Shown piece after piece: positions 323-55,054 of a stretch of DNA of 64,000 bases (positions are counted from its first letter, which is position 1; every line of letters starts with the position of its first letter). The stretch is from Candidatus Gottesmanbacteria bacterium RIFCSPLOWO2_01_FULL_43_11b (lineage in GTDB: Bacteria; Patescibacteriota; Microgenomatia; UBA10105; UBA927), in assembly GCA_001780985.1 (NCBI GenBank), contig MFJV01000001.1, positions 300,049 through 364,048 on the forward strand, written 5' to 3'. The notes under the pieces were generated by a model, which saw nothing but the letters and a program-made list of their open reading frames with translations, did not search any database and was not told where the DNA came from. A program made the position numbers and the translations under genes.

Positions 323-970
323 ATGCGTGAAAACTACTCTTTATTTCTTTTATTACCCTACTCACTTTTATCACTAAAGAGAACTCAAGTACATCATTTC
401 CCTCTTGACACCTTTATTAATAATGGTTTTACTGGATATATGGTTAATAAATTTCAAACGAATGCGTCTAATGTGCCGTATTATCTGAATAATCTGGAAA
501 TGTTATTTACCGATTTTTTACAGCAGGCGGGATCATCGGAAAAAACGCGGAAAAACTACAAAAGTGACGCGAATCATTTCTTAGGCTGGTTTATTTTCAA
601 ACTTGAATCCGCGGATCGTCTCCCTCATTCGCATATTGAATTCGTTCAGCGCATCACTCCGCGGTTCGTTGAGCAATATAAAACTTTTTTGCTAGTAAAC
701 AATATTCCAACAGCAACAATCAATCGCAGGCTCTCAACCATTCGAAGTTTTTTCAATTTCTGTCAAACACAAAAGTGGATTTCAGACAGCCCTGCTAAGA
801 ATCTTGCCACTGTTCGATCAAAAAAATTAGAACAGTCACGTTCCCAGGAAGACATACTTTCGTCATTTGCGCGGGATCTCAAAATGGAGGGTGCTTCAAG
901 GGCGACAATAAAAAATTACGTAAGCGACGTCCGGCTTTTTCTCCGTTGGAAAGATATTTATGCCGTTTAA
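323..970 (+). CDS. Protein of tandem phage-integrase-type N-terminal SAM-like (core-binding) repeats with no catalytic recombinase domain; probably joined by a +1 frame junction to the giant gene that follows
   Basis: 215-aa [29 protein letters not shown] ... [12 protein letters not shown] forms one complete core-binding-type helix bundle. A second N-terminal half follows ([28 protein letters not shown]). No R..HxxR..Y catalytic motifs. The stop overlaps the ATG of the 960 ORF, whose first 45 aa are a third copy of the same motif. Confidence 0.55.
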
Positions 971-3900
971 ACCTGCCAATCTCACCCAATACGAAGAACA
1001 CCTTGCTGACCAAGGATACTCTCCTGCAACAATTGCGCGAAAAAAAGCCTCTGTAGGTAAATTTCAACAGTGGGCTGATTCGCGGGAAACGATTACGATA
1101 CCGGCTGAAAACGAACACCCACGGAAAAGTCGCGCATGGATGTATGGAGTTTTGTTAGCACTTGGTGGTATTGGATTGCTAACCATGATCGTCATAGTAC
1201 TGTTGAATCAACAAAGCCGGGTAGCCCCAGCAATTACCAGCCGTGCAGTTGTTGTTGAACCAACACCTGGCACTCGGCCTACCCCGACTGCTACTCCTAC
1301 CCCAGAGGTAAGCACGGTTGCAAAATCTCAAGAGATCCCCTCATCTCAAGCATATACGATCAGCGGAGAGACTGTTACTATCACTACTTCCCCATTTAGC
1401 AACGGCGACATAACGCTCGCACCCGATGGTCAGGGACAGTTCCTCATTCGATCGAGTACAAGCACAGAGAATTCCGTAGATGTTCGCAATGCCAATTTAA
1501 CAACCGGTGCCCTTCTCTACGGGAATGTAGGTAACAGCAATCTTGGGTATGATTTCCTGCGCTTTACCAACGGCCCGGATGAAAAACTCCACTTCTCGGT
1601 CGATGCCTCCGGCAATACCTATATCGGAGGAAATGCAACGATTGAAAATATCCTGCTTGTCGATGAATTAAAGACTAAAGATGCCTCAGCCATACAGCTG
1701 GACAATGCCATCACGTTTAAAGATGCCGGTACGATATCAACAACCAATGGTAATTTGAATCTCCAACCCTCTGGAGTCGTGAATATTCCGGTAATTATCC
1801 AAAATCTCTCAACAAGTAACAGTGGGAGGGTGCAAATCAACGATGATTTACAAATCTATGGATCAGAATGGATTTCAGGGGGGTTAGATGTCAATGGTCG
1901 TACAATTCTCAACAGCAGCCTTCTCATTAAAAATGGTTATGGGCTGCCTGGGTTTGAATTTACTCTTGCCGGCGATGCGACAATTTCCGGAAGTCTTTCT
2001 CTTGCCCCGAACGTGCCGGGTTACGTTGGCACATGCGATTCAAGTAAAGCAGGACTGATCTATTATGATGGAGTTGTAAATATTCTGTACTATTGTAATG
2101 GAACAACATGGGTTTCTGCTGAAAGCGGTGTGGGCGGTCCCACCGGTGCGACTGGGGCGACTGGGGCAACGGGAGCCACCGGAGCGACAGGAACGGCTGG
2201 AGCTTCCGGCCCAACGGGTGCTACCGGAGCGACAGGCGGAGCTGGTCCGACTGGGAGCACCGGAGCAACGGGGGGTGCTGGTGCTTCTGGACCGACCGGG
2301 TCAACTGGTGCAACCGGTGGAGCCGGTATAGGTGGAGCAACGGGGAGCACAGGCTCTACGGGAACAGATGGACCAACCGGACCAACCGGGGCGACAGGGT
2401 CTGCTGGACCAACGGGAGCGACCGGAGCGACAGGAGATGGCGGTCCGACGGGATCCACGGGTGCAACCGGAGCAGATGGACCGACGGGTGCAACAGGCGC
2501 AACCGGAGCTACCGGTACTGCTGGAGCTTCTGGTCCAACCGGAGCGACCGGGCCAACAGGAGGTCCCGGTATTGGAGGGGCTACAGGAAGTACAGGTTCC
2601 ACAGGAGTTGAAGGGCCCACCGGAAGCACGGGGGCGACGGGAGCGAATGGACCCACAGGAAGTACCGGCCCCACTGGGTCAAATGGACCAACGGGGGCGA
2701 CGGGGGCCACGGGTGCAGCCGGAAGCGATGGGCCAACGGGAAGTACGGGGGCCACCGGAGGCGGGGGGCCAACCGGACCAACGGGAACAACCGGTGCTAA
2801 CGGACCAACCGGAAGTACAGGGCCGACGGGGGCCAATGGACCAACGGGAAGTACGGGGGCGACGGGAGCAACGGGAACGGTGGGAGCAAGTGGGCCGACC
2901 GGAAGTACAGGAGCAACAGGGGCTAGTGGGCCGACCGGAAGTACAGGAGCAACAGGAGCTAATGGACCGACGGGATCTACTGGTGCTACAGGCGCAACAG
3001 GGACCGCAGGTGCTTCCGGACCGACGGGAAGTACAGGTGCAACCGGTGGTAACGGACCCACTGGATCGACCGGACCGACGGGATCTGCCGGACCAACCGG
3101 AGCGACTGGTGCGACGGGGGCCACGGGCACTGCTGGTGCGAGTGGACCAACAGGGGCGACTGGGGCAACTGGTTCTAATGGACCAACGGGAAGCACAGGA
3201 ACTACCGGATCAAATGGTCCTACTGGAGCCACAGGCGCAACGGGAGCTACTGGTGCGGCAGGTGCTTCCGGTCCTACAGGAGCAACCGGGTCAACGGGAG
3301 GAGATGGTCCGACGGGAAGTACCGGTGCAACAGGAACAAATGGACCCACCGGTGCAACCGGAGCCACAGGCGCAACAGGTGCAACCGGCGCAAATGGGCC
3401 CACTGGGGCAACCGGAGCGACGGGCGCAACCGGAGCGACGGGAACCGCCGGCGCTTCCGGACCTACCGGCGCAACAGGAGCAACCGGCGCAACGGGAGCA
3501 ACCGGAGACAACGGTCCCACGGGAAGTACCGGCGCAACAGGTGCAACCGGAGGGGATGGTCCGACAGGTCCCACCGGGACAACGGGGGCTAATGGGCCGA
3601 CCGGTGCAACGGGTGCAACGGGTGCAACGGGTGCAAATGGGCCAACAGGATCGACAGGGGCAACTGGCGCAACAGGAACAGATGGGCCGACAGGATCAAC
3701 GGGTGCAACAGGAACGGGTGGCCTCGGTGGTGCAACGGGGGCAACGGGAGGAACAGGAGTTGCTGGTTCTTCCGGACCGACCGGGGCAACTGGCGCAACC
3801 GGGGGAACTGGCGCAACCGGGGTACAGGGACCGACAGGTACGACTGGTTCAACGGGAACAACGGGAGCAAACGGCCCAACTGGGATGACTGGGGCTACCG

Positions 3901-6900
3901 GCGAACGTGGTGCCGCGGGTGAAAATCTCTTTGATCAAACGAATAATCTTATTTACCCCTACCCTGTCGTCAATCGCAGTATTGCTTTGGGAAGCGACAT
4001 ATTTTCTCCCGCCGATGATCCGTCAACAACATCAACTGCGAGTGCCCTTATCATGCTCAATGGCGATAATGGACAGATCTGGGGAGCAGATACTACGATA
4101 GGAAAAAACATCCGGACCGACCTACGAGCACTTAGTAACGTCACCGATGTGTTCGTCTATGATACAAGCAAAGACTCCGACGCCGGATTATGGAGAAATG
4201 ATGATCGGGGCAAAGCAACAAGCTGGTACAACGAAACCATTGATAACCCGGCCGCCACCTGTGTCGTGGATACCGACGATCGCTGTGGCAACAGAGAGTT
4301 TCCAGCCAAAGCCATTATCGTCGTAACTACTACCAAAATGTATATATATGATGCATACGATAACACGCTGTGGATGGATTTCCGCAAAGGCGCGACCACG
4401 ATCGAGCAAATGATCGGGCCGACCGATAATTCCACAGGTTCCAGTGTCTGGGCGTTAAACGGCAAGATTTACTATGCAAATAACGGCTCGGTCGGAGGTC
4501 TCTATGTCATCGATCTTCTCAACGACCGTGCCTACAAATACGACGCCACTAATGATTACGTCGGCGACAAAACCGTGGGAACCAGAAATTCGACGGTCAC
4601 CTGGACGGCCGGACCATCATCACCCATCGTGAATGCAACGATCAATGATATCATGGCACGGGTCATCGGTGGAGACACATACGCTGTCGTAGGAACCGAT
4701 GCAGGTATGTCCGTCATTAACGAAACCGACCGCGCGGTCTTTGATTATGACGATGAGGTGGGAACGGCAGATAACGACTACAATAGCGTCTGGCTCGACC
4801 GTGATGGTAATCTCTGGGACCTCAACGAAACTGCGGGGCAGCTCGATAAATGGACAAACGTCATTGCTGACTCTGCCGATGAAAATCCCGGTAATCCGGA
4901 TACCGTCTGGGACGAATCCTCTACCCCGGCGCTTTTTGACAGCGCGCAAACGATAAACGTGGCACCTTCTGCCCTCACCGTCCGTGAGGGGACGAGTACG
5001 GTGGACGGAAAATCTCCGACCGTTTACGTCGGCCACAATGGCGGACTCACGGCGCTTTCTACCAAGGCAGATGATGAAACCAACGGCTCGGTCAAATATT
5101 ACACCAACTCATATATTACCGAAGAAATGATAGGAGATATCCGCGGCATGTGGCCTTTATACGGCAGTGGTTCCATTGCCGACGGAACCAACAATATCGA
5201 CGATGCCTCAGTCAAATCCGAAGAGCTCACCGCCAAAAATGCCAACGGCACAGGTCTTGCCTACGCCACAGGAGTACGGGGAACGGGAATAAGTTTTGAC
5301 GGAACCGACGATTATCTCTGTTCCGACACGAATGATGACGACACCTGCGACGACACAGCAAATCTTGAATTCGGCGCATCACCCACATTCTCCTACGGGA
5401 CATGGTTCAATGTTAATTCCTCCGGAGGGAATGAATGCGCCGTCAGTGATAAAAATGGGTGTGTAAACTCGACGGCCGGCTACTCCGTGTATAAGGATAC
5501 CACGGACAAGATTGTATGCCGCATCGCAGACGGAAGCAACGCCGCAACGGCCACAACCGTCGGGACACATGCCGACAGCCTTTGGCACCAGGTAACCTGT
5601 ACCGTGGATGGATCAAACATCCGAATCTACATCGATGGGATTCTTGACGCGACATCAAGTATTGCAACCGTGACTGGCTCAACCAACAACACATTACCAT
5701 TTATTATTGGGGGTCAGGGGTCACCAACCACCAATTTTTTCTCGGGATCTATTGACGATGTTTTCGTTACGGCGGAAGCTCTCACTCCGGGTCAGATCAG
5801 AAACCTATACCAAGTTGGCTACCGCGCTTCGCAAAACCATACAGCAGGACGAATTACAAATATCGGAGCGGATGATTATCAGCATCTTTTGGGAAATGCC
5901 TCCGGCGGCACCTCAACCAGTAGCCGTGTGTTTTCTGCCGCAGTCGATGATAGCAATCAATTTATTTATGCCGGAATCAACTCAAGCGGCGATAACACCG
6001 GTGGAGTGACGGTGCTTGGAATTGACAGCGACAGTGCTCTTGATCTTTATGACACAACGGCAAATACCAGTAAAGACGACGATATCGGTACGCAGTTTAA
6101 CGCCAGCGATGCGCTTGCGATATCTGTAGCTGGTGCTCCGTGCCCTGCGTACAACGGCGGCACGACCGCCTGCAACAATAGTGCCACCCTCGCAATCGCC
6201 GGAACTGACGATACGAACTATCGAGTCTGGATGGAGACGTCGGAAATATCACTGTATAACGCGCTTTCTCTTATCAGTAGTCCGTCACTCACGAAAAACA
6301 ATATGACCGTCAACAACATATTCACGATCTACAATACCTATAACAATCTGGATCAATCATCTACAGGAGAAACGATCCAAACCCCGGCGCTTTCCGTCGA
6401 CAGCAACGGGAACCTCGTCTACAACTATCTCGGCACATCAACAAGCGCAACAGCCATGGACTTCAACGATTCCGTACTCACTACAGGAACCATGCTTGAT
6501 CTAACTTCCACGACGCTCACGACGGGAGATGCGCTCAAAATTACCACAAACGCCCTCACGAGCGGCAATGCGCTCGATATTTCCTCAACGAGCACGGCCA
6601 TGACGGGCGATTTGGCGGCGATTACGCTTTCCGGAAGTAACGCTGCCAACACCGGCTCGCTTCTTTCTCTCACTAATAGTGGTACAGCTAATACCGGGGA
6701 GACTCTCTATATCAAACACTATGCTACCGGTACAAATAATCTCGCGATGCGCGTAGACGATGTAAGTAGCGATACGTCACCCTTTGTCATAGACGGCGCA
6801 GGCAACGTCGGCATCGGCCAGTCGGCGCCAGTCAGTCAACTTTATATTGGAAACAATGCCGACAGCTGGACCGATGCGTCCAACTCCCAGGTGACCATAG

Positions 6901-9900
6901 AAGGCGTTGATAATGAAACGACAGTCAAAGCGTTTTCGGTGAAAGATGAAAATGCAAACGAGTACTTCTTCCTTAGCTCCGTTGCCGGCTCTAACAACGG
7001 AATAGCATATTTCAAAGGCAATGTTGGCATTGGCGATACTGGTCCGGATTATCATCTGGAAATCAGCGATACCACCGATACTCCGGTTCTGGCCCTTTCT
7101 GATGATGATATCGCCCAGGGATTCACCACAGATGTAGCAGAGACAGACGTGTTTGCTCACCTTACCTCCCTCTCCACAACTGCAGGAGGAGTCCAGTTCA
7201 CTGCGCTTTCCGATACTGACGCTCAAGCCCTTTCCATCAAGGCCGGTATTGGATCTGCAACCCCTACGGATACGACGCCCGCGATCAAGTTTATCGGTGG
7301 TAAATTAAGTGGTACGACATTCGGCGATCTTGACGTCACCTCTGCAATCACGTCAACTACCGCAGAAACGGTCTTCCAAATTGCCAACAACAATGACACT
7401 GCGGGATTTACTATGTTGGGGAATGGAAATATAGCTATTGGTAATAATGTAAGCCCTTTGGGAAAACTGGTTATTACTTCAAATCCCTTAGGGTCCGACT
7501 ACACAACCGGCCACGCGGCACTCATCGTCGACCAATTTGAAACCCAGGATATTATCGCCGCATCCGCCTCTGGAGTACTTCGCTTCAAAGTAGAAAGCGA
7601 CGGAGATGTTGTTTCGCAACGGTTTATGGATTCGGCAGACAATACTTACCTCATAGATCCGGCGAACGCCAGCACGGCTCTTACCCTAGCAGGAAGTGCC
7701 GGAATCGGCGACACCACACCCGATTATCTTTTGGAATTATATGACGCAACCGCCACACCCGCGTTTGCTCTTTCCGATGATGATATCGGCCATGGGGTTA
7801 CTACCCTGGTCCAAACAGACGTCTTTGGGCATCTGTCCTCGGTCTCCTCGTCCGACGGGGGCCTACAAGTAACCGGACTGGCCGACGCTACGGGAATAGC
7901 GTTGGGGCTCAAAGGGGTTCAGTCTTCCAATCCGACAGACACAACACCTGCAATTTCACTCATCGGAACCAAAGCCAATGGCACGGGGGTTCAGGATTTG
8001 GATTCTGCAGAAACCGTGCTCCAAATAGCCAACAACGATAATACCGCAGCCCTGACAGTTCTAGGAAATGATTATGTCGGAATCGGGACAACCACCCCGT
8101 CAACCCCGCTTGAAGTTGCAATTAATAACGCCACCAATAACGACATTACCAATCTTTTAACCCTGACCCACACCACCTCCGGAACTGCCACAGGTGGCCT
8201 TGATGCTGTCCTTCTCCATATGGACGGAGATGATGCTTCAACGACTTTTACTGACGAATCAGGCAAAACATGGACAGCCAACGCCAATGCCCAGATTGAC
8301 ACGGCTCAAAGCAAGTTCGGCGGAGCATCGGGTTTATTTGACGGCACCGGTGATTACATTAACACCGCAGATCATGACGACTTTTATCTCGGCAGCAGAG
8401 ACTGGACCTTTGATTTCTGGATAAGACATGTATCAAATGCCACAGATGAATATATCTTTACTCAATATGCAGATGCCAACAATTATTTCTACATCCTGGC
8501 AAATGGAGGGGGAAATACGCTAGCTATCGTACAGGCAGATTCAAGCACAACCAGATGGTCATTCACAGCCCCGTGGAATCCGACAAACGCCACCTGGTAT
8601 CATGTCGCAATCGAAAGAGAAGGAAACACTCCAAGAATATTCATAGGCGGTGTAGCTCAAACTGTTACCGAGGTAACCACAATTGCCGGAAAAACGGCGG
8701 CTGACATTGCCGCAAGCCCAAGAATCGGGATAAACGGGGTGGGCAGCGCAGGTCTTAACGGCTGGCTGGATGATTTCAGGTTTACCAACGGCACTGCCCG
8801 CTGGAGCAGCAACTTCACCCCGCCGGCAAGCGCAGTCACCTATCAAGGGGGAACAGTCACCGGAATAGGGACAGGTCTTCTTTTCAGGACGGAAGATTCG
8901 GCCGGCAATACGGAAAACGCCGGCAGGATATATTCTGCTCTAAATAAAACCACCGACGGAGAGGAGACGTCCCAAATGACTTTTGAGACAAGAACCGGCG
9001 GAGCGGCTCTAACTCCCGCGATGAGACTTAACGGAATCGGGAATCTAACCCTAAAAGGTTCGCTAATTCAATCCAGCACACCGGATATTGCCGAAAATGT
9101 GATTGTGACTGACCCGACGGTTGAGGCGGGAGATATCGTGGTAATTGATCCGTCCTATCAACCGCCGGAGGGGGCCAATATTTATAACCGCTTTGCCGCC
9201 AAAAAGGCCGAGACACCCTATTCGCAGCAGCTTCTGGGAGTAATTTCGCAGGACCCGGGAATTATTCTTAATGCCCCTGAAGACGCGGTTGATACCGGCG
9301 AGCAAAGTGCTGCCAACGAGCGGCCTTTGGCTATTGCCGGCCGTGTTCCGGTCAGGGTTTCCACAATTAACGGCAATATTAAAAATGGCGACGCCATTAC
9401 CGCCTCGATGATTCCCGGAGTCGGGATGAAGGCAACCGGCGAAGGCAATATCGTAGGCCGCGCTCTGCAGGCATTTAGCTGTGAATCTCCCGATACTCCC
9501 TGCGAGGGCAAAATCCTTGTCCTTGTGTCCACTTCCTGGCATAAACCCAAAATTTTTGAAGAGGGCGGGATAATAACCACGATCATCCAGGACGCCCAAA
9601 CTTTGGTGTATCAGGTGGTGCAAACGACGGCCGAGGGCATTGACCGGATCGCCGAGGAGATTGGAGTTTACGCCAATTTAATCGCGGCAAACATTAACGC
9701 GGGACTGATTGAAACAAAAGAACTCAAAACCGATACTCTCTCTCCCATTGCTTCGGATAGCGCAGGGATCGCCGTACGCCTAGGGCCGGAACAAACGTTT
9801 ACCATCACCGACAGAGAAGGCACTCCGTCTGCACGCTTTGACAACTTGGGGAACGCTACATTCTCTGGTGAACTAACTGCGAGTGAAGCAAGTATTTCCG

Positions 9901-10658
9901 GCAATTTATATGCTGACCGTGTTCAGACTTCGTTTGGAGATTTAGATGCTCGGCTGATTGGTCTCGAAGCGTCAATTTCAGCTATTGGTTACATTGCTCC
10001 ACCTGATGAGTCAACAAGTTTAGCAACCAATGTTCCTGACCTCACCGTCGCCAATAATCTAACCGTCTACGGACAGACGAGTTTAGGCCCCGTAAGTGTT
10101 GCCGGATCTCTCCTTGTTGATGGCGTCATACAGTTGTCGCAGCAGGGAATCGACTTTCTCGGTGACACGTTAGATTTTCTCAGCGGCGTTCTTCGCCTAA
10201 GTGCAAACAGAATTGAAGTCGGCGCGCCCATTGCTCCCATTCCAGGCCAAGATCTCACGATAGATCTCGAAAAACCGTCATCCGGCTTCGGCACGCTTCT
10301 CGTCAAAGGAAATGTTTACACTGAGGGCAATATCGCTGCCCGAAGTGCCACTGTCTCGGGCGAACTCACCACCCGAAAGCTCATTATAGCTAACGATCAA
10401 GCCTCACCAAGTGCGGAACTATCTGAAATTTCAAGTAACGCGACAGTCGGAGTCGGCACAATACAAGCTGAATCACTCGAAGTAACTATTCCCACTACTG
10501 CAGTAACAGATTCATCATACATCTATATCACACCGACAACTTCTACAAATAACCAAGTACTATATGTAAAGTACAAGATCGCCGGAAGCGGATTCGTTGT
10601 CGGATTTGATCAAATTGTTCCTGCTGATGTGGAGTTTAACTGGTGGGTGATTAATTAA
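960..10658 (+). CDS. Giant membrane-anchored surface protein (3232 aa) with N-terminal SAM-like segment, signal-anchor TM helix, Thr/Pro linker, collagen-like Gly-X-Y region, two LamG/ConA-like lectin domains and tail-fibre-like repeat modules
   Basis: Uninterrupted 9.7-kb ORF. TM helix [23 protein letters not shown] at ~1138-1210. [10 protein letters not shown] linker. About 200 GXY triplets. LamG motifs ([22 protein letters not shown] ... [21 protein letters not shown]; [10 protein letters not shown] ... [20 protein letters not shown] ... [15 protein letters not shown]). Repeated NVGIG(D/Q)(T/S)xP modules. Confidence 0.85.
2130..3920 (+). repeat. Collagen-like Gly-X-Y triplet repeat (about 200 triplets, mostly GPTG(A/S)TGATG) inside the giant gene, highly repetitive at DNA level
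   Basis: Continuous G-x-y periodicity from ...[14 protein letters not shown] to ...[14 protein letters not shown]. Reverse-strand Pro/Val/Ala-rich ORF 2090..3574 and +-strand ORFs 2098..2331 and 2332..3888 are frame shadows of this repeat. Confidence 0.85.
6780..8110 (+). repeat. Three tandem, diverged ~100-150-aa tail-fibre-like modules within the giant protein
   Basis: Module starts [17 protein letters not shown]..., [48 protein letters not shown]..., [47 protein letters not shown].... Each ends in ...QIANN(N/D)(D/N)TA(G/A)(F/L)T(M/V)LGN. Confidence 0.5.
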
Positions 10659-10705
10659 CTTTACAACTTACAACTTTACAACTTATAACTTGATAATTTA
10701 CAACT
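10657..10705 (+). repeat. Imperfect heptamer array (T)TTACAAC x ~6 directly upstream of the four-helix-bundle gene start
   Basis: aactttacaacttacaactttacaacttataacttgataatttacaact, ending 5 nt before ATG 10711. Confidence 0.8.
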
Positions 10706-10710
10706 AGGTA

Positions 10711-11070
10711 ATGAAAAAATTTCGTTTTCTCGAGTGGAAAGTTTACAAAGACGCGAAGAATCTATTCGCTAGACTCCTTACGATTGTTAAAAGACTTCCA
10801 AAAGAATATCGTTTTGAATTGGGAAGTCAGATTATTAGATCGGGACTTTCTGTTGTGCTCAATATAGCCGAGGGAAGTGGGAAAAATTCAGATAAGGAAC
10901 TTAACCGTTATTTCGATATCTCCCTTGGGTCATTACATGAAGTTTTGGCATGCATTGATGTACTGAAAGACAATAAGCTTATAACAGAAAAAGAGTTTAA
11001 TGATATTTTTACTTTAGTAAATGAAATTTCCAACCAATTAGGAGGCTTCAAGAAAGTTGTTAAGTTGTAA
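10711..11070 (+). CDS. Four-helix-bundle protein (TIGR02436 / 23S rRNA intervening-sequence protein family; DGR Avd-like fold)
   Basis: 119 aa. Family-typical LxxA..L...VV.L...I.R.......LNIAEGSG....KE...F..ISLGSL.E....I.V. The last four residues are encoded by the downstream repeat array. Confidence 0.8.
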   Translation: MKKFRFLEWKVYKDAKNLFARLLTIVKRLPKEYRFELGSQIIRSGLSVVLNIAEGSGKNSDKELNRYFDISLGSLHEVLACIDVLKDNKLITEKEFNDIFTLVNEISNQLGGFKKVVKL

Positions 11071-11096
11071 GTTGTAAGTTGTAAGTTGTAAGTTGC
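11056..11096 (+). repeat. Heptamer array (GTTGTAA) x ~5.5, the inverted complement of the array at 10657..10705
   Basis: gttgttaagttgtaagttgtaagttgtaagttgtaagttgc. Overlaps the last codons and stop of 10711..11070 and lies 5 nt from the stop of the pilin gene on the minus strand. Confidence 0.8.
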
Positions 11097-12156: not shown

Positions 12157-12882
12157 TTATGGGCACCAGTTGTCTGGATTCCTGCAAGCCTCGACACAGG
12201 TAGCGACATCGTCAAAAGACGCCGGACAGCCACTCTGCTGCGGGTTAGTGTACGTATTGCAGTCACCTCCCGGCGTGCAAGCCAAACTCCCATAATACCC
12301 ACTCGCCGGCGTTGGCGTTGGGCCGCCGCCGCCATCACCACCACCGTCACCACCCGGTGTGGGCGTTGGCGTTGGGCCGCCGCCGCCATCACCACCACCG
12401 CCAGGAACAAACCCTTCTGCTACAACCGAAACACCTACCGAATTACAAAAATTGTATCCCTCCCCCCACCCACATCCCTCGACGGGGTCACAGCCAAGCG
12501 AGGTAATGGCAGGATCGCTCGTGTCTTTGAGGGAAGCGCAGGCGCGGTACCCCAAACAGGGATTTGCTTCCGGCACGTATAAATAGGGCTGTTTCGTAGA
12601 GGGGTCACAAGGAATTTTATCAAGGTATGGAACCAGTGTTGCTGCGCCGCAACTATCGAGAATTCCAGAGTCGGGGTAACACCCCTTGTCATTGTAGTAC
12701 TCTTCAAATGCAGTACGTATTGCATTAAGGTCGCTTTTTCGCTTCGCATCATAGCCCCTATCAATTTGTCGTTTCCAGTTAAAAAGGGCAACGACGGTAA
12801 ACAGAACCAGGATAATCGCAATTGCGATCAGGAGTTCTGCCATCGTCCACCCCTGCCTGCCGGCAGGCTGGCCTTCTTTCAT
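12157..12882 (-). CDS. Type IV pilin-like protein with Gly/Asp and Pro/Thr low-complexity repeats (start trimmed to Met16 of the track ORF 12157..12927)
   Basis: MKEGQPAGRQG|WTMAELLIAIAIILVLFTVVALF with E+5. Internal GGGGDGGGGPTPTPTPGGDGGGDGGGGPTPTP. Confidence 0.65.
   Translation of the reverse strand: MKEGQPAGRQGWTMAELLIAIAIILVLFTVVALFNWKRQIDRGYDAKRKSDLNAIRTAFEEYYNDKGCYPDSGILDSCGAATLVPYLDKIPCDPSTKQPYLYVPEANPCLGYRACASLKDTSDPAITSLGCDPVEGCGWGEGYNFCNSVGVSVVAEGFVPGGGGDGGGGPTPTPTPGGDGGGDGGGGPTPTPASGYYGSLACTPGGDCNTYTNPQQSGCPASFDDVATCVEACRNPDNWCP
12308..12402 (+). repeat. Direct tandem duplication (~54 nt unit, 1.75 copies) inside the pilin-like gene, encoding GGGG(D)GGGGPTPTPTP
   Basis: ggcgttggcgttgggccgccgccgccatcaccaccaccg occurs twice in tandem. 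Confidence 0.7.
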
Positions 12883-13204
12883 ATAGTTTTTAGTATGACA
12901 TGGATATTGACTCTGTGCAAATATCAATACTACTATAGTATATACAATGCTGCCTCAGAAACGCCTGCTACTTCTGCTATCAGTTATTGTCGTTCTCCTC
13001 TACGTTGGACTCAATGTCGCAATCTATCTCTGAGGCACAACGATCTCTCAAAGCAAATTCGGGAAAGCAGCCACGAATCTTTCCATCATCAAAGAACAAA
13101 AAAAACCACAATCAACACAAACCACTAGGGAAATCCCCTTCACCCCCCAACAAGTTGTCCTCCCAAGTGGCTCTCAAACATACCGTTTTTCCCACGGAAA
13201 AGAC

Positions 13205-13480
13205 GTGATAGGCCCCAAACCTGAAAGTATCACCATCGATCCCCTTACCCCGGAGAAAAACCAGACGCAGACTGTAATCGTTGCAATCAAAGATCCGGTT
13301 GAAAGTGCTGTTGTCGAACTTACCACTGACAATCAAAAAACTCAGCACGATCTTAAAAATAATAACGGAAACTGGGAGGGGGTTTGGACAGTGGACGATA
13401 ATTATGACAACACGAACGCCATGCGGTTAATTTTGAAAAACAAAAGCTATACCTATGATCAAACGTTATACTTTCGATGA
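13205..13480 (+). CDS. Hypothetical small protein (possible beta-sandwich fragment) with a GTG start
   Basis: 91-aa ORF in an otherwise gene-poor ~650-nt stretch. No recognisable family, and it could be a gene remnant. Confidence 0.25.
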   Translation: MIGPKPESITIDPLTPEKNQTQTVIVAIKDPVESAVVELTTDNQKTQHDLKNNNGNWEGVWTVDDNYDNTNAMRLILKNKSYTYDQTLYFR

Positions 13481-13539
13481 GAATTAGGGATTAGGGGGAT
13501 AGTATTTAGTATATAGGGATTAGCATAGAGGAAAACAAT

Positions 13540-13803
13540 ATGCAAAATGAAGATAACGGCAAAATTACAAGCTTTACCCAGCTTATTGCGTGGCAAAGAG
13601 GACACCAGTTAGTACTCAATATCTATAATATGGTGAAGAAATTTCCATCGGAGGAGCGATACGGATTATCGGATCAAATGAGGCGTTGTGCGGTGTCTAT
13701 TACATCGAATCTCGCCGAAGGATTTTCCCGACAGGGCAAAAAAGAAAAAATTCAGTTTTATTTTACTTCACGAGGTTCACTCACACTTCGACGGCACCAT
13801 TGA
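13540..13803 (+). CDS. Four-helix-bundle protein (TIGR02436 family), 3'-truncated relative to the family norm and overlapping the next ORF
   Basis: 87 aa. LIAWQRGHQLVLNIYNMVKKFPSEERYGLSDQMRRCAVSITSNLAEGFSRQGKKEKIQFYFTSRGSL matches helices 1-3 of the family, but the ORF stops about 30-40 aa early (...TLRRHH*). The downstream LamG ORF begins inside it in another frame. Confidence 0.65.
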   Translation: MQNEDNGKITSFTQLIAWQRGHQLVLNIYNMVKKFPSEERYGLSDQMRRCAVSITSNLAEGFSRQGKKEKIQFYFTSRGSLTLRRHH

Positions 13804-15635
13804 CGAGCCTTTCTTTGTTAGAAAATCCCTTGCCTATGAAGAGGCTGCCGAGGCCTACCGCGCCGGGCGCGACCACTACCTAAATAAAACCATTTCCTCA
13901 ACCGATTTATCCGGTAAACAAACGCTACCCTTCTACGTCGCCGCAGACCGGCCGGGAACGTATCTCGAGGCCACCGTCGGCGAGAACGCCTTTGCCAACT
14001 ACCAGCCTGATTCCAACACGGTTGGCTTATGGCACCTTGCCGAGCAATCCGGTTCGGGGGAATACATCAAAGATAGTTCCGGTAATTCCAATCATGGAAC
14101 TCCAACAGGAACTACTTTTACCCAAGGTAAAATTGGCAAAGGGAGAAATTTTGCGGGATCTTCAAGCCACTGGATCGGAATTAATTCTCCAACTTCCGGG
14201 ATTACTGCTGGCGGAGTAAAAACCGTTAGCGCGTGGATAAATACATCGTTGGCTACAGACGAAGTTATATTTAACGCATATGATGGAACGAATGGTTACC
14301 AAATTTATGTAGGCGGAGGGGCTTTTTACAGTTGGAGTAATGGTGGCGCAACTCTAAGTTCTTCTACTGTAGTTAATGATGGAAAATGGCACTATGTAGT
14401 AGCTGTTTTGGGATGGAACAGACGCTTATTTATATGTTGATGGAGTCCAGAGAAACTCGGGAGCCAGAACAATTTCGACAAGCACAACACCTCAAGCCCA
14501 AATAGGTACACAATGTACAGGATCTTGCCCCACCGGCCAAGCGGTTAATTTTAACGGTACTATTGATGAAGTCAGAGTTGACAATACCGCCCGCACTGCA
14601 GATGAAATCCGGCAGGCGTATGAGGTCGGGAAACGAACCCATCCGGTGACGATTGATTTTGGAGCAAAACTCGATAGTGGCGATGATTTAAGCGATCTCT
14701 CATTTACGATTGATGCCACCTATTACGGACTTAACAGTAAAGGCAGTAATTTGTATAAAGGCGATAAAATCATAGTCCGGGAAAACGTCGACGGTACCGA
14801 ATATATCTCCCAGGGAACGGTAACGGCGGTGACGGCCTCAACCGGTGCAGTAACTGTTGCTGCCTGGGATTCAGGATCCACCGTCCCCTCCGGCGGATTT
14901 ACCGTAAACGCATCAGTATTCAAATGGCAGCGGGAATACTTTGATCCCACCGGATCGCTGTCTACCCACCGCGATGCAATAACTAATCTCACATTCAGGT
15001 TAACCGATGGCGCCGAAGGCCGGACCATCTGGCTTGATGATCTCAAAAGCAGCGGCGGGTATCTTACCACACCAGAAGGATCAACGATCGCTTCTTCTTT
15101 AGACAATCAGTATTTCCAGTACCGAATTGTCGAGATGACCAATGACACAGCGGTTTCGGCAAGCCTAACTTCGTTAACGGGTGGCTATGGTTCCTTGGGT
15201 ATACCGATTTCGGGTAATTATATTTATACCACTACTTCGGCTAACACGAGTGATTTTATAACACGCTACGTTGACATCAACGATCCCACTACCCCCCGTT
15301 ATGTTTTGGGGGTAGACAACGGCGCGGACGAGGACGCCGACAATACGGCCAATTTTGAAGTCCAAAGCGGTGCTTTAACCATAAATGCAAGTGACACTTT
15401 AGTGGCGGGGACTATGACTCTGACCGGAGGCTCGGTGGCCATTGCCAACGGCGGCCAGATCGTCATCGGGCAAAAGTTATGGACGGTCGACCAGGATGTC
15501 GACGGCTGGTCGTTGAACCGAAGGTTGGGGTACGGTAGTAAACCAACCAACGGACGGCGTAAAAATTTGATGGCCAGCTTTGGCGCAAATGACTGCGACG
15601 ATACGGTAAACAGTTCAACCAACACCTGTCAGTGA
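13688..15635 (+). pseudogene. LamG/ConA-like lectin-domain protein with C-terminal DxDxDG...CDD metal-binding-type motif, interrupted by a 1-nt frameshift at a GGG run (~14409-14411); the track splits it into ORFs 13688..14440 and 14646..15635
   Basis: Frame A carries GLWHLAEQSGSGEYIKDSSGNSNHGT...KWHYVVAVLG then a stop. Frame B opens at 14403 and continues DGTDAYLYVDGVQRN...FNGTIDEVRVDNTARTADEIRQAYEVG, the canonical end of a LamG_3 domain. Deleting one G restores ...VAVLDGTDAYLYVDGV. No internal Met in the first segment except M1, which lies inside the upstream 4HB gene. Confidence 0.5.
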
Positions 15636-15655
15636 AGTGATGTTATTGAAAAATC

Positions 15656-15814
15656 TCCTGGGCGGTTGACCAGGACGCTGACGGCCACTCTTTAGACCGC
15701 CGGCTCTGGTACGGTGACCAGCCAACAAACGGCAGACGTAAAAACTTGATGACCAGCTTTGCCGTTGCCGACTGCAACGACACGATCTATGATACCTCCA
15801 ACCTCTGCCAGTAG
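15656..15814 (+). repeat. Promoterless, start-less, diverged (~70% identical) duplicate of the last ~50 codons of the LamG gene, including the DQD(A/V)DG(H/W)S...CNDT motif and its own stop
   Basis: Translation AVDQDADGHSLDRRLWYGDQPTNGRRKNLMTSFAVADCNDTIYDTSNLCQ* compares with the gene end TVDQDVDGWSLNRRLGYGSKPTNGRRKNLMASFGANDCDDTVNSSTNTCQ*. It lies in a different frame, with a stop 7 codons upstream and no ATG. Confidence 0.7.
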
Positions 15815-15842
15815 TTCAGGTATGTGATACAATAAATGTACT

Positions 15843-16052
15843 ATGCCGCTTGTTTGGGATTATCCGAAAGCTAAACTCACGAGATCCCGCCGCGGTTCCG
15901 TACTACTTCTTGAGCGATTGATTAATTTTGGACCGGGAAAAGGAGAAAAAATTCACCTGCGGAAAGTAAAAGAACACTGGGGGGCCCTCCGCTTGTTTCC
16001 GAACAAACGGCGGCTCATGGAGCTTTTCTTATGGGGAAAGCCACAATCTTAA
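15843..16052 (+). CDS. Small hypothetical protein directly upstream of and overlapping an AbiEii toxin gene; possibly a truncated or remnant AbiEi-type antitoxin
   Basis: 69 aa. Overlaps 16031 ORF by 22 nt. No confident family match from sequence alone. Confidence 0.3.
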   Translation: MPLVWDYPKAKLTRSRRGSVLLLERLINFGPGKGEKIHLRKVKEHWGALRLFPNKRRLMELFLWGKPQS

Positions 16053-16693
16053 CACCGAGACAAACTGAGCTCATACGGGCACTTTGCGCAGACACATTTT
16101 TCACCGACACGTTTTATTTTACCGGAGGAACTGCGCTTTCAGAGGTGTATCTCAAGCATCGCAAAAGCGAAGATCTGGATTTTTTTTCCGCCCGCACGTA
16201 TGATCCCCAACGAATTCTCCACGCGTTAACGCGGTGGTCCAAAACACAAAGATTTTCTATCAAAACGGACTTTGTCGAGCCTACGCATATCTACGTGCTG
16301 ACATACCCCGATGGCCACGCTGTCAAAGTGGACTTTGCTACATATCCCTACCCAAGCCTCGATACGCCAAGCCGGTATCGGGATACCTTGTCCGTGGACA
16401 GCCTGTTTGATATTGCCGTCAACAAACTCGTAACCATTACCCAACGCACGGAGGTGAAAGATTTTGTAGATCTTTATTTTCTATTCCGGCAGTTTACATT
16501 TTGGACCCTCCGGGACGGCGTTAAAACCAAATTTAATATCGAGATAGATCCATATGGAGTTGCCTCAAATTTCATGGCTGTAGAAGACTTTGATTTCCTT
16601 CCGATCATGCATACCCCATTGACCCTACAGGCGCTCAAAATGTTTTTCCGGACCAAGGCAAAAGATCTGGGGAAAAAGAGCATCGCCCCTTGA
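16031..16693 (+). CDS. abiEii: AbiEii / AbiGii-family nucleotidyltransferase toxin (type IV TA system, DUF1814)
   Basis: FYFTGGTALSEVYLKHRKSEDLDFFS matches the GGTAL...RxSxDLDF nucleotidyltransferase signature of the family. Confidence 0.75.
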   Translation: MGKATILTPRQTELIRALCADTFFTDTFYFTGGTALSEVYLKHRKSEDLDFFSARTYDPQRILHALTRWSKTQRFSIKTDFVEPTHIYVLTYPDGHAVKVDFATYPYPSLDTPSRYRDTLSVDSLFDIAVNKLVTITQRTEVKDFVDLYFLFRQFTFWTLRDGVKTKFNIEIDPYGVASNFMAVEDFDFLPIMHTPLTLQALKMFFRTKAKDLGKKSIAP

Positions 16694-16726: not shown

Positions 16727-17263
16727 ATGTACAAGATAGATATACTCCTGAAGCAAAAAAATCGTTTATTTCATACCAGGGACCTCGGCCTTTTGTGGCA
16801 GATACAAAATACAAATACACTCTACACCCAAATCAAACGCTACACAGCCAAAGGCATACTTATTCCGGTCCAAAAAGGACTGTATACCACCGTCCCCGTA
16901 ACCCAACTGCATCCGTTTGCGCTTGGCGCGGCTGCCCTGCACCGTTATTGCTATATAAGTTGTGAGTATGTGTTGGGTCAGGCAGGCATTATATTCCAGG
17001 CCGGTCAATCCGTCACGTTTGTTTCATCTGTTTCACGTAAATTCACGCTTGGTGGTCATGAGTTTTTTGTAAGACAGCTGGCAGATCAATTTCTCTTTAA
17101 TGATGCCGGTATTCAAAAAGATGACGACGGCATATCTATCGCCTCCCCCCAGCGCGCAGTTGCCGATCTTTTATACTTTAATCCTCACGCTCATTTTGAT
17201 AACCGACGCGCATTAGATTGGACAAATGTGCGCGACATACAAAAGAAAGTGGGGTATCTATGA
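16727..17263 (+). CDS. abiEi: AbiEi-family antitoxin / transcriptional regulator (type IV TA system)
   Basis: N-terminal LFHTRDLGLLWQIQNTNTLYTQIKRYTAKGILIPVQKGLYT matches the AbiEi_4 winged-helix pattern (F...DL......N....L.RL...G.L..I.RGLY). Its stop overlaps the next gene as ATGA. Confidence 0.75.
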   Translation: MYKIDILLKQKNRLFHTRDLGLLWQIQNTNTLYTQIKRYTAKGILIPVQKGLYTTVPVTQLHPFALGAAALHRYCYISCEYVLGQAGIIFQAGQSVTFVSSVSRKFTLGGHEFFVRQLADQFLFNDAGIQKDDDGISIASPQRAVADLLYFNPHAHFDNRRALDWTNVRDIQKKVGYL

Positions 17264-18009
17264 TACTTCCGTATCCCAAAGACGCGCTCCATAAAGCCAT
17301 GCTCTACCGGCTCCTCATTGGTCTGTTGGATGCCAAAGATGTGGCAAGAGAGATATTTTTCAAAGGCGGTACCTGTGCTGCTATGCTTGAGTGGCTGGAT
17401 CGGTTCTCCATCGATTTGGACTTTGATCTTTCCCGAAATGCAGACAGGCCCAAGCTGAAACGGCTCCTGAAACGTATATTTAACGCCAATGGATTTCGTG
17501 TTGCCGAAGAAGCCAAAAACGAGCTCTATTTTATTCTGAAATACCAAGCACCACCGGGTACACGAAATAACTTGAAGCTGAGCATTATTGATCTTCCGGT
17601 TCGCGCGAATGTGTACCAGCCACAGTATCTTTCGGATATCGCGCGTTTCGCTGTGTGCCAAACCGTCGAAACCATGTTTGCCAATAAACTCATCGCTGTC
17701 ACCGACCGGTTTAAGAAATATCACACCATCGCTGGAAGAGACATTTATGATATACACTATTTTTTTACCCAAGGATATGGATATAATCAGGAAGTTATTA
17801 CGGAGAGGACGGGAGTGTCGCCAGCCGTATATCTACGTGAGCTTAGCGAATTTATCCGTCAAAAAATAACGGAAAGAATTATTAGTGAGGACCTGAGTTA
17901 CCTCCTGCCGCCTACAAAATTTCAAGTGGCGCGGCGCACACTAAAATCAGAAGTCCTTATCTTTCTTCAGTCCGCAAAATCCCACGCGCCGTTGATACAA
18001 CAAGCCTAA
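17260..18009 (+). CDS. abiEii: AbiEii-family nucleotidyltransferase toxin (start at the internal Met overlapping the AbiEi stop)
   Basis: FFKGGTCAAMLEWLDRFSIDLDFD signature. ATGA overlap with 16727..17263. Confidence 0.75.
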   Translation: MILPYPKDALHKAMLYRLLIGLLDAKDVAREIFFKGGTCAAMLEWLDRFSIDLDFDLSRNADRPKLKRLLKRIFNANGFRVAEEAKNELYFILKYQAPPGTRNNLKLSIIDLPVRANVYQPQYLSDIARFAVCQTVETMFANKLIAVTDRFKKYHTIAGRDIYDIHYFFTQGYGYNQEVITERTGVSPAVYLRELSEFIRQKITERIISEDLSYLLPPTKFQVARRTLKSEVLIFLQSAKSHAPLIQQA

Positions 18010-52844: not shown

Positions 52845-55054
52845 AAGATAATAAACGAAAAGTGAGTCAAAATTTTTCGCGCGCAATCATCCGAGTCAGC
52901 GAGGGCGTGAGCACGAAAAAATTTTGGGCGAACTTTGTGGGATTCGCACTCCTTCTTTTTTCCATAGGCTTTAACCTGTGGATCTACCGCCTCGAACCCA
53001 CTGCAAAAGTAGATCCGAATGATAATCATTTTCAATTTGCATTAGTTGATCGGACGAACCAAATCTTTGATTTTGCACCTAAAAATTGTTCAAAAAAATT
53101 GTCATTTGTCATTTGTCATTTGTCATTTCTTATTGATCACTGGGTGCCCAATTGGGCTGAAGGCTATAACCTCCCCTACTACTATTCCCACATCCCTCAA
53201 ATTGCTATCGTCGCTTTCTGGCGTTCGTTACATATCGGATCTTTATTTCAGTTTTATCATTGGGTTATTTATTTTCTTCTCTCTCTATTTCCACTTTCTT
53301 TATTTCTTGCACTTCGTATCACAGGACTTTCCTGGATAACAGCCGGGGTCGGAGCATTAATAGGATCTCAAATCTCTACCGACGGCTTCTACGGCCTGGA
53401 TCCAGCTTCATTCCTCTGGCGCGGGTACGGGCTTTCAAGCCAACTCTTTGCCATGGTTTTCTTACCGCTTGCAATTGCATTTGCTCTACGAGGCAAAGTG
53501 ATTCCAACGATCCTCACACTTGCCGCTACCACCGCCGGACATCTTGGAATCGGTATTATTGCATTCATAAGTGTTGGTATTGTAGGATTCCGAAAAGTTT
53601 TGTGGATTTGGGTGGGCGCGGGACTGCTCCTTGCCTACTGGATTATTCCGGCATATCTTCACAATAATTACCATAATTTCTCTGTCTGGGATCCTATCTG
53701 GAAATTTGATTCGTATGGTGCAAAAGAGGTCATCACAAGACTCTTTAACGGCAACCTATTCGACTTCGGAAGATTCCCAATTTTGACAATACTTGTATTG
53801 GTGGGATTGTTTGTAAACCGAAATTTTGCCATTCTATTTATTTTTTGGGTGCTCATGTATTTCGGAAGAACAACGTGGGGGTCACTCATCGACCTTGTTC
53901 CCTTTTTGAAAGAATTTCACCAATCTCGCTTTATCGTCGGAATTCACCTAGCCGGATTGTTTCTTATTCCGATTGGTTTCCAATTTCTCTTTCAAAAATT
54001 AAAAAATATCTTTCTTGTTATCCCTATAATTATTTTATTTATTTTCATGATTTATCCCCAAACGACGCGCTATGCTAAACATAACGATTTTTTGATTAAC
54101 CGCGGCAATGCGGACTATCAAAAAGTGGAAGATGACGTGGATTCTTTATTCTTAAATCTTAAATCTTACCTCTCTGCCCGCCCGGGGAGGGTATTTGCAG
54201 GGAGAGGAGGATCTTGGGGACGTGATTTTCGCGTTGCTGAAACCCCCTATTACATGTTCCTTTCTACACATGGAATTTCAACAGTTTTATGGATGCCGGA
54301 AACATGGTCACCAAGCTCTGATACCGAACAGTTCTTCAGTGAAAATCAACCGAAAGATTACGTTCTATTTAATATTAGATACGTAGTAGCGCCACCCAAT
54401 CAACAACCGCAATCATTCTGGAAATTACTCAAAGAGTCACCCACCTGGAAACTCTATGAAGTTGAAACGGAAGGCTACATATCCTCCGGAGTTCGTCCGG
54501 CTATTGTCAGCAGTTCGAAAGAAAACTTTATTAATCTTGTCCACTTATGGATCCAATCAGACTATCACAAGCAAGGTCTTTACCCGCAGTTAATCTTTGA
54601 CAAAGACTATCCAAAAAATTACGGCCTGCCGAATTTCAGAATGCTCGACGAAGTTACCTATAAAGTTCCGGACGGAAGCACCCACAATCTCTTTTCCGAA
54701 GTTCCCAGTTATATGTTGTCAGTTGACAGTTATCAGTTACCAAAAATTCTTTCTCAGGAATCGGACTCTGATATGGTCTTTAAAGCCAAAGTTGAGGTCA
54801 AAGAAGACTGTAAAGAATGTATTGTCATCCTCAAGCAAACCTTCCACCCGTCCTGGCGTGCCACCATCGATGGTAAGCCTGTCGAACCCATCACCGCCTT
54901 CCCCTTCTTTACCGCGGTCAAACTGGAATCAGCGGGAACACACGAAGTCATCTTTTCCTACCAACCATCGGGGATCAAAATAGCGCTCCTTATCGTTTCC
55001 GTCATCAGTCTGGGCGCTCTCTTCGCCCTCACTTCTACTGGCCAGAACCAGTGA
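52841..55054 (+). CDS. Large polytopic membrane protein (putative GT-C-like) containing a heptamer tandem repeat
   Basis: ATGA overlap with the upstream gene (MKDNKRK start, trimmed from the track ORF 52817..55054). More than 12 TM helices and a C-terminal soluble domain. Its 3' end overlaps the convergent giant gene by 20 nt. Confidence 0.65.
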   Translation: MKDNKRKVSQNFSRAIIRVSEGVSTKKFWANFVGFALLLFSIGFNLWIYRLEPTAKVDPNDNHFQFALVDRTNQIFDFAPKNCSKKLSFVICHLSFLIDHWVPNWAEGYNLPYYYSHIPQIAIVAFWRSLHIGSLFQFYHWVIYFLLSLFPLSLFLALRITGLSWITAGVGALIGSQISTDGFYGLDPASFLWRGYGLSSQLFAMVFLPLAIAFALRGKVIPTILTLAATTAGHLGIGIIAFISVGIVGFRKVLWIWVGAGLLLAYWIIPAYLHNNYHNFSVWDPIWKFDSYGAKEVITRLFNGNLFDFGRFPILTILVLVGLFVNRNFAILFIFWVLMYFGRTTWGSLIDLVPFLKEFHQSRFIVGIHLAGLFLIPIGFQFLFQKLKNIFLVIPIIILFIFMIYPQTTRYAKHNDFLINRGNADYQKVEDDVDSLFLNLKSYLSARPGRVFAGRGGSWGRDFRVAETPYYMFLSTHGISTVLWMPETWSPSSDTEQFFSENQPKDYVLFNIRYVVAPPNQQPQSFWKLLKESPTWKLYEVETEGYISSGVRPAIVSSSKENFINLVHLWIQSDYHKQGLYPQLIFDKDYPKNYGLPNFRMLDEVTYKVPDGSTHNLFSEVPSYMLSVDSYQLPKILSQESDSDMVFKAKVEVKEDCKECIVILKQTFHPSWRATIDGKPVEPITAFPFFTAVKLESAGTHEVIFSYQPSGIKIALLIVSVISLGALFALTSTGQNQ
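53092..53126 (+). repeat. A7 homopolymer followed by (TTGTCAT)x4 heptanucleotide tandem repeat inside a coding sequence
   Basis: caaaaaaattgtcatttgtcatttgtcatttgtcatttc, encoding ...KKLSFVICHLSFL.... Confidence 0.8.

Follow-up and report, generated by a model that had tools for sequence, protein, structure and literature searches.

A once-translated relic behind the 3' end of a decayed LamG surface-protein gene in Candidatus Gottesmanbacteria

Repeats of the 3' end of a surface-protein gene that lie close to the gene itself are known from DGRs of the Bordetella phage BPP-1 type, where a variable repeat and a template repeat form the pair. DGRs are abundant in CPR bacteria, and the myDGR limit for the share of substitutions at non-adenines is ≤30% (PMC6602519 for both). 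Similar layouts occur in the silent cassettes of Neisseria (pilE/pilS) and Borrelia (vlsE), in which several silent copies accompany an intact expression locus. The third arrangement to be considered is plainer, namely the gene remnants, or unitary pseudogene fragments, that deletions leave behind. To which of these does a 3'-end repeat in the reduced genome of a groundwater bacterium belong? The stretch of DNA analysed here (the window) is 64 kb of the 1-Mb genome of Candidatus Gottesmanbacteria bacterium RIFCSPLOWO2_01_FULL_43_11b. Its repeat is best read as ordinary gene decay in a CPR (Patescibacteria) surface-protein locus and not as a diversity-generating system, and we give a probability of roughly 55% to the reading that the second copy is what remains, as a 3' stump, of a neighbouring paralogue lost from this decaying locus.

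The repeat pair and the broken genes around it

The features of the locus are as follows (positions are those of the window):

12947..13480, + strand: apparent further gene remnant, in which a membrane anchor is followed by a TGA in frame at 13031 and then by an N-domain
13540..13803, + strand: truncated four-helix-bundle gene (23S_rRNA_IVP/Avd-like), fused at ~13787 to the LamG remnant
13787..15635, + strand: remnant of a CPR LamG surface-protein gene, beginning midway through a LamG domain (FDGTIDE...), with a +1 frameshift at 14408
14405..14410, + strand: frameshift site GTTTTG, at which one extra T shifts the frame, 2 to 0, within the Laminin_G_3 domain
15330..15632, + strand: conserved ~100-aa module, a beta-solenoid (xLTINAxDTLxxGxxxLTGGSxAIA) and then a W.VDxDxDG...NGRRKNLM...DCxD...N.C domain
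15480..15635, + strand: copy 1, WTVDQDVDGWSL...NTCQ, 51 codons plus TGA in frame 0, the 3' end of the LamG-gene remnant
15636..15658, + strand: spacer of 23 nt, with stops in all three frames and no demonstrable family homology
15659..15814, + strand: copy 2, WAVDQDADGHSL...NLCQ, 51 codons plus TAG in frame 2, with no start codon and a TGA in frame at 15647

Copy 1 consists of the last 51 codons and the TGA of ORF 14646..15635. The two copies align without gaps at 106/153 identical nt (69.3%), and BLAST finds the same relationship at 72% over 126 nt (blastn, E 9e-15) and at 65% over 51 aa (tblastn, E ~1e-20), a similarity far above chance. The first-pass annotation had described the gene's 3' end as recurring downstream at ~70% nucleotide identity in a copy that keeps frame and stop, lacks a start and has a stop 7 codons upstream, and our measurements agree with it on each of these points. 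The upstream stop is the TGA at 15647 (4 codons before the Trp codon that opens copy 2 and 7 before DQD), a second TGA lies in the same frame at 15638, and no ATG, GTG or TTG was found in that frame between these TGAs and copy 2. Stops close each of the three reading frames between the copies; there is an ATG at 15640, in the frame adjoining that of copy 2, which reaches a stop after 9 codons. The copies end in different stop codons, TGA in copy 1 and TAG in copy 2, and their starts are 179 nt apart, which is 60 codons minus one nt. BLAST at the DNA and protein levels and a six-frame profile search found no third copy in the 64-kb window. An Rfam search of 10-18 kb gave no matches, promoter and terminator scans gave background level only, and a search for phage matches found none.

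The repeat arrangement is real and not an assembly artefact, because two further assemblies agree with the window: a Logan contig is 100% identical to it over 12371-16072, and an ENA contig is 99.6% identical and gapless, with its SNPs confined to the contig ends. No variation was seen inside 15470-15814 among the three assemblies.

The gene that carries copy 1 had been taken in the first-pass annotation for an intact LamG gene, a description that has to be given up, since what is left is a frameshifted and 5'-truncated remnant. Its LamG frame 2 spans 13787-14407 and then continues in frame 0, with VAV|WDGTDAYLYVDG split by one extra T, and the GTTTTG site is identical in all three assemblies. 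When the T is corrected, the product is 615 aa long, aligns end to end with the homologues P0007/P0008 at 46-50% identity, and matches Laminin_G_3 (PF13385) across the frameshift site (E 2.6e-21; 76.8 bits, cut-off 27.6); the uncorrected LamG ORFs gave no match to Pfam. At its 5' end the remnant begins with FDGTIDEPFFVRK...AYRAGRDHY, the end of a LamG domain, which abuts the four-helix-bundle gene, and the remnant has no usable start codon and no signal peptide. The frame-0 part, ORF 14646..15635, is 100% identical to the deposited 'hypothetical protein A3A79_01855' (Gottesmanbacteria RIFCSPLOWO2_01_FULL_43). It may be useful to annotators that this 329-aa entry is the tail of a frameshifted pseudogene and not a gene.

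The neighbouring genes are broken as well. The family match of the four-helix-bundle gene ends at profile position 69/106 (protein residue 81/87). The stretch at 12947-13480 looks, from its sequence, like a further gene remnant: its N-domain bears a weak likeness to the N-termini of the homologues P0079, P0071 and P0053 (blastx E 1e-5, small database), whose full-length forms continue into the same solenoid and DxDxDG module as the LamG remnant, and this module is absent from 12947-13480. The 3 kb around the repeat are thus a patch of gene fragments, with three other truncated or broken genes besides copy 2. TGA is a normal stop in the window because it ends 18/41 of the window ORFs; an alternative genetic code, with TGA read as an amino acid, was considered and ruled out on this count.

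The solenoid and DxDxDG module and the divergence of copy 2

Copy 1 is the last half of the ~100-aa module. An exhaustive profile search recovered 42 proteins with the domain at E <= 1e-3, and all of them are CPR-type secreted or surface proteins. A first profile scan of genome contigs for the domain gave no matches; among the matches listed from later scans are at least 4 distant loci in metagenomes and at least 8 in genomes, and the genome matches listed come from Woesebacteria, Roizmanbacteria, other Microgenomates MAGs and several MAGs labelled as other phyla. Each of the 12 related loci listed, in other genomes, has one copy of the domain. Its consensus is W.VDxDxDG[YW]...P.NGRR[KR]NLM...DC[ND]D...N.C, and it always lies 3' of a beta-solenoid (xLTINAxDTLxxGSLxLTGGSIAIA). 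The domain is internal in most family proteins and is then followed by MopE-like DADGDxYG...DCxD repeats or by Cys-rich or Gly-rich tails. In the giant homologues P0050, P0054 and P0061 (2300-2700 aa) the order is multiple LamG domains, a HPVTIDFGAKLD...YFQYR module that is also present in the window LamG gene, FN3, and then the solenoid and DxDxDG module; compared with these proteins the LamG remnant lacks at least 1000 residues at the N-terminus, as well as the FN3 region and the tail.

Searches of both copies and of the homologues P0041 and P0045 against Pfam and NCBIfam at E <= 0.1 gave no match, including to Cu-binding_MopE. AlphaFold (AF2) modelled the module with a mean pLDDT of 88 from a 32-sequence alignment and with a pLDDT of 50 from a 7-sequence alignment. 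Foldseek of the predicted fold against the PDB found no relative (best E 2.9), and the sequence profile reaches the solenoid part only of 4wa0, a 'possible adhesin'. The DxDxDG and DCxD motifs might bind metal, a guess from the motif. The combination of solenoid and W.VDxDxDG...NGRRK...DCxD is a widespread Microgenomates surface-protein domain with no Pfam, NCBIfam or PDB counterpart, and its description may be useful to annotators.

Has copy 2 changed as a coding sequence or as untranslated DNA? The 51 codon pairs divide into 21 identical, 13 with only synonymous differences and 17 with a residue change, and the Nei-Gojobori values are pS 0.70 and pN 0.20 (dN/dS ~0.12; Fisher's test of synonymous against non-synonymous changes, p 6e-7). 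Synonymous sites between the copies are therefore near saturation and non-synonymous sites are not. We also scored the copies against a foreign profile built from 36 homologous domains of other organisms, with the window sequences left out. Copy 2 scores 74.8 bits and copy 1 scores 66.8 bits, and the best foreign identity is 59% for copy 2 (to the P0041 domain) and at most 49% to any foreign domain for copy 1. Neutral drift was then simulated: at 0.2 or more substitutions per site, 74.8 bits together with an open frame were kept with P <= 0.002, even with the best-scoring family member as the starting sequence, and at 0.43 substitutions per site, which is half of the lower bound of ~0.85 for synonymous divergence, with P = 0 (1000 runs).

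Copy 2 is a relic of a once-translated sequence, and its translation was lost recently relative to the age of the duplication; the latter follows from the absence of any internal stop or indel in its 51 codons. A relative-rate test gave no significant overall sign that copy 1 had changed faster (12 vs 6 sites, p 0.24), and its outcome varies with the outgroup. Each copy is the other's best match, at 65%, and both carry the lineage-specific residues SLxRRL, NLMxSF and CQ-stop. Neither copy 2 by itself nor a 10-sequence alignment of the domain brought up a closer relative of copy 2 when used as a query against protein databases.

Origin of the second copy

The course of events that we favour is as follows. 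At first the locus would have contained two or more adjacent paralogous genes for LamG-type surface proteins, each of them ending ...N.CQ-stop, and for most of the time since the copies diverged copy 2 would have been translated, supplying a CPR cell-surface protein with its C-terminal Asp/Cys-rich domain. A deletion, recent on this time scale, would then have removed the second gene save for its last ~52 codons and placed this stump 23 nt past the first gene's stop codon. Decay of the first gene would have followed, by 5' truncation against the truncated four-helix-bundle gene and by the +1 frameshift in its LamG domain. We infer this deletion, and with it the hypothetical second gene, as the most likely route. 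It is favoured because both copies are protein ends (each of them ends in CQ-stop, so each was once the end of a protein), and it also agrees with the other truncation junctions found in this locus. Homology to the family sets in abruptly with the Trp codon at 15659, as expected for a deletion junction. Copy 2 further has what identifies a gene remnant, namely homology to the 42-protein family, loss of the start and of the upstream part, and the low dN/dS given above. We regard it as a non-functional relic, and nothing indicates a present role. Against the stump, no intact paralogue or orthologous locus was recovered; a junction merely 23 nt behind a stop is a coincidence under random deletion; and a local domain duplication would explain equally well that the copies are each other's closest relatives with lineage-specific residues.

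Such a local duplication is the alternative that survives best, and we consider it unlikely. It states that the last domain was duplicated in tandem and in frame, and that a nonsense mutation (e.g. GGA to TGA at 15633) and a 1-nt spacer indel later cut the second domain off. The spacing of 179 nt is 180-1, the TGA at 15633 aligns with GGC at 15453, a Gly codon, the route accounts for the long purifying selection that both copies show, and the locus does gather point defects (the frameshift at 14408 and the TGA at 13031). The 8-9 codons before the Trp codon should in that case be a conserved solenoid strand. In copy 1 the preceding 8-12 residues add ~17 bits on the foreign profile, and for the spacer, in any frame and with any single-base correction, the best score is 81.9 bits (frame 1, EVMLLKNL), which is not above random (null P 0.145). 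Spacer frame 0 (SDVIEKSP) was considered separately as continued family homology that would favour this duplication, and was dropped at a null P of 0.28. At least two separate mutations are moreover needed, the duplication must end exactly at the last sense codon, and the domain never occurs twice in tandem among the 42 database matches and the 12 loci listed. We rank the in-frame duplication below the deletion stump because its linker is without homology, it takes more events and no two-domain relative was found.

It is rather improbable that copy 2 arrived as a piece of a distant paralogue or foreign gene, pasted in behind the LamG gene by illegitimate recombination or horizontal transfer. 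Copy 2 does share residues with one foreign subgroup (P0041/P0045/P0060) and copy 1 with another (P0047/P0054), the left boundary of homology is abrupt, and the GC3 of the module (0.65-0.73) exceeds that of neighbouring genes (0.32-0.48). Composition does not single out copy 2, however, because copy 1 and the adjoining solenoid share the raised GC3; the copies are also reciprocal best matches, and no donor was found.

Could copy 2 instead act as pilS does for pilE, as a silent cassette from which gene conversion replaces the C-terminal domain of the expressed gene? The first-pass annotation had left a conversion cassette standing, and it finds little in its favour here beyond a well-preserved, start-less surface-protein end placed in register directly behind a gene, with pilin-like genes nearby. 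The copies share no exact run longer than 9 nt, and their mismatches are distributed evenly (P 0.85 under shuffling). An identity of 9 nt is too short for RecA-type recombination, and since synonymous sites are saturated there has been no recent exchange between the copies. There is a single extra copy in 64 kb, the three assemblies are invariant, and the would-be acceptor is a frameshifted, start-less pseudogene where several silent copies and an intact expression locus would be expected. With a longest exact match of 9 nt and a dead acceptor gene, this reading is very unlikely. We give slightly less credence still to the idea that the start-less copy 2 is kept as a reserve C-terminal module, which would restore or alter the surface protein by rare recombination, or that the TGAs (13031, 15633) and the single-base shifts (14408, ~15658) are reversible or recoded switches by which this CPR lineage turns a set of surface-protein genes off and on.

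There is very little to be said for a plain tandem duplication that included the stop and left copy 2 untranslated from birth and drifting since, although the geometry would suit it, with a stop at the end of each copy and the junction immediately after the first stop. We reject a never-translated duplicate because of the coding-type divergence, the foreign-profile score and the neutral simulations: at the lower bound of pS a pN of at least 0.33 is expected and 0.20 was observed, copy 2 outscores copy 1 on the foreign profile, neutral drift keeps its score with P <= 0.002, and 51 codons are free of internal stops and indels. The 'old tandem duplication' of a copy start-less from the beginning, which the first-pass annotation had retained, is contradicted by the same observations. 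Equally little credence goes to copy 2 being still translated, by TGA read-through and frameshifting or as a small protein for which translation would begin at the ATG at 15640 and slip by 1 nt. The frame is indeed open and well preserved over 51 codons, and that ATG is one frame off, but TGA is a normal stop here (18/41 ORFs), stops block every frame between the copies, neither a slippery heptamer nor a signal peptide is present, and the upstream gene is dead.

That the copies are the variable and template repeats of a DGR is the least probable reading, in spite of a C-terminal repeat pair, two Avd-like four-helix-bundle genes within 5 kb and the abundance of DGRs in CPR (PMC6602519). The first-pass annotation had already rejected it on finding mismatches beyond adenines, and base-by-base classification bears this out: the 47 mismatches are 28 transitions and 19 transversions and comprise every base class. 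With copy 2 as template 11/47 mismatches are at adenines (11/37 adenine sites and 36/116 other sites differ), and with copy 1 as template 17/47 (17/43 adenine sites and 30/110 other sites), so that non-adenines account for 77% and 64% of the substitutions, respectively, against the 30% limit; T-sites, for the opposite strand, hold 10/47 mismatches. A DGR would be expected to have a reverse transcriptase of its type within ~10 kb, and a Pfam scan of all ORFs of at least 150 aa in the 64 kb found no reverse transcriptase (RVT) family. The 3' ends differ between the copies (their last 30-nt windows match at 17/30), and an IMH/IMH* pair is therefore lacking. The four-helix-bundle genes at 10711-11070 and 13540-13803 fit PF05635 (23S_rRNA_IVP; E 1e-26 and 8e-28), reach 22 and 35 bits against bAvd (PF22296; cut-off 40), and one of them is truncated; the assemblies, again, show no variation. 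A DGR is excluded, for practical purposes, because the mismatches span all base classes and no ORF of at least 150 aa in the window encodes a reverse transcriptase.

Meaning and comparison with known systems

The repeat is of little weight in itself and is an example of recent decay of a surface-protein locus in the reduced CPR genome of a groundwater bacterium. It does show that a VR/TR-like layout beside Avd-like genes can be a false alarm in DGR scans. The locus resembles DGR pairs, of the type of Bordetella phage BPP-1 and common in CPR, in having a repeat of a surface-protein 3' end nearby and Avd-like four-helix-bundle genes around it, and differs from them in lacking adenine-specific mismatches, a reverse transcriptase and an IMH and in having a 'template' that evolved in the manner of coding sequence. 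As in the silent cassettes of Neisseria pilE/pilS and Borrelia vlsE, a start-less partial copy of a surface-protein gene adjoins the gene. Unlike them, the locus has just one such copy, which lacks conserved recombination flanks and is 69% identical to the end of the gene, with exact runs of no more than 9 bases, its acceptor is a pseudogene, and variants were not observed among the three assemblies.

The domain itself is like the MopE-type 'putative metal-binding' repeats (DxDGDxYG...DCxD) and the DxDxDG calcium-binding loops in having DxDxDG and, ~30 residues on, DC[ND]D, and canonical DADGDxYG...NNTDCxD repeats directly follow it in P0042, P0045, P0049 and P0061; an invariant W and NGRR[KR] motif of its own sets it apart from them, as does its constant place after a beta-solenoid. 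Among gene remnants left by deletion, or unitary pseudogene fragments, copy 2 is unusually well preserved, with 51 codons that contain no internal stop or indel. In other respects it is like them: it bears the codon-level mark of past purifying selection with no evident function, and it lies, with neither a start nor a promoter of its own, beside truncated and frameshifted genes.

The C-terminal module of the broken LamG gene

The ~100 aa module at 15330-15632, a conserved beta-solenoid plus W.VDxDxDG...NGRRK...DCxD, recurs in the homologues P0039-P0080 (foreign proteins found by profile searches) and is part of Microgenomates surface proteins. Its predicted fold has an AF2 pLDDT of 88, and no counterpart of the module was found in Pfam, NCBIfam or PDB. 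At third codon positions, the C-terminal module and both copies of its last half (15200-15814) have a GC fraction of 0.61-0.73 and the neighbouring genes one of 0.32-0.48, so the module may be mosaic or of foreign origin. At 15656-15675, right where copy 2 (the start-less relic) begins, there is a hairpin, TCCTGGGCGGTTGACCAGGA; the terminator scan reports it as a minus-strand terminator-like site, a score that is probably due to chance.

The LamG gene that carries the module is broken by an extra T in GTTTTG (14405-14410), a +1 frameshift within the Laminin_G_3 domain that is common to the three assemblies (the window, Logan and ENA contigs), and the start codon of the deposited protein A3A79_01855 (329 aa) is a GTG inside this frameshifted pseudogene.

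Surrounding genes and an apparent remnant upstream

Features around the LamG pseudogene and elsewhere in the window
323-970, ORF overlapping the start of the next gene; of a tyrosine integrase it carries just the N-terminal SAM-like domain
960-10658, 3232-aa ORF with two Laminin_G_3 domains and a collagen-like stretch of ~600 residues made up of GPTGATG repeats (Pfam Collagen, E 2e-65)
12947-13480, apparent gene remnant with N-terminal membrane anchor, in-frame TGA at 13031 and N-domain
15843-16052, 69-aa ORF directly 3' of copy 2
16031-16693, AbiEii toxin gene
16727-17263, AbiEi-like gene between the two AbiEii toxin genes
17218-18009, AbiEii toxin gene
55035-63986 (-), 2983-aa ORF with Pfam matches to Beta-lactamase2, LytR_cpsA_psr, GGDEF-like and methyltransferase

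The collagen-like ORF probably encodes this locus's giant surface protein in intact form. The N-domain of the remnant is weakly similar to the small secreted proteins P0079, P0071 and P0053, and in proteins of this type the solenoid and DxDxDG module normally comes next. The Pfam matches on the distant minus-strand ORF form an odd combination.

Two four-helix-bundle genes

The second four-helix-bundle gene (13540-13803) breaks off near residue 81 and is joined at about 13787 to the middle of the LamG gene, at what looks like a deletion junction. The intact one matches 23S_rRNA_IVP (E 8e-28) and, with its flanking repeats, occupies 10661-11084; these repeats, TTACAAC-type and inverted (10661-10691 and 11054-11084), are complementary at up to 96% over 24 nt. 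Because they lie on both sides of the gene, the entire ORF falls within a potential long stem, an arrangement reminiscent of rRNA intervening sequences or of a small mobile unit.
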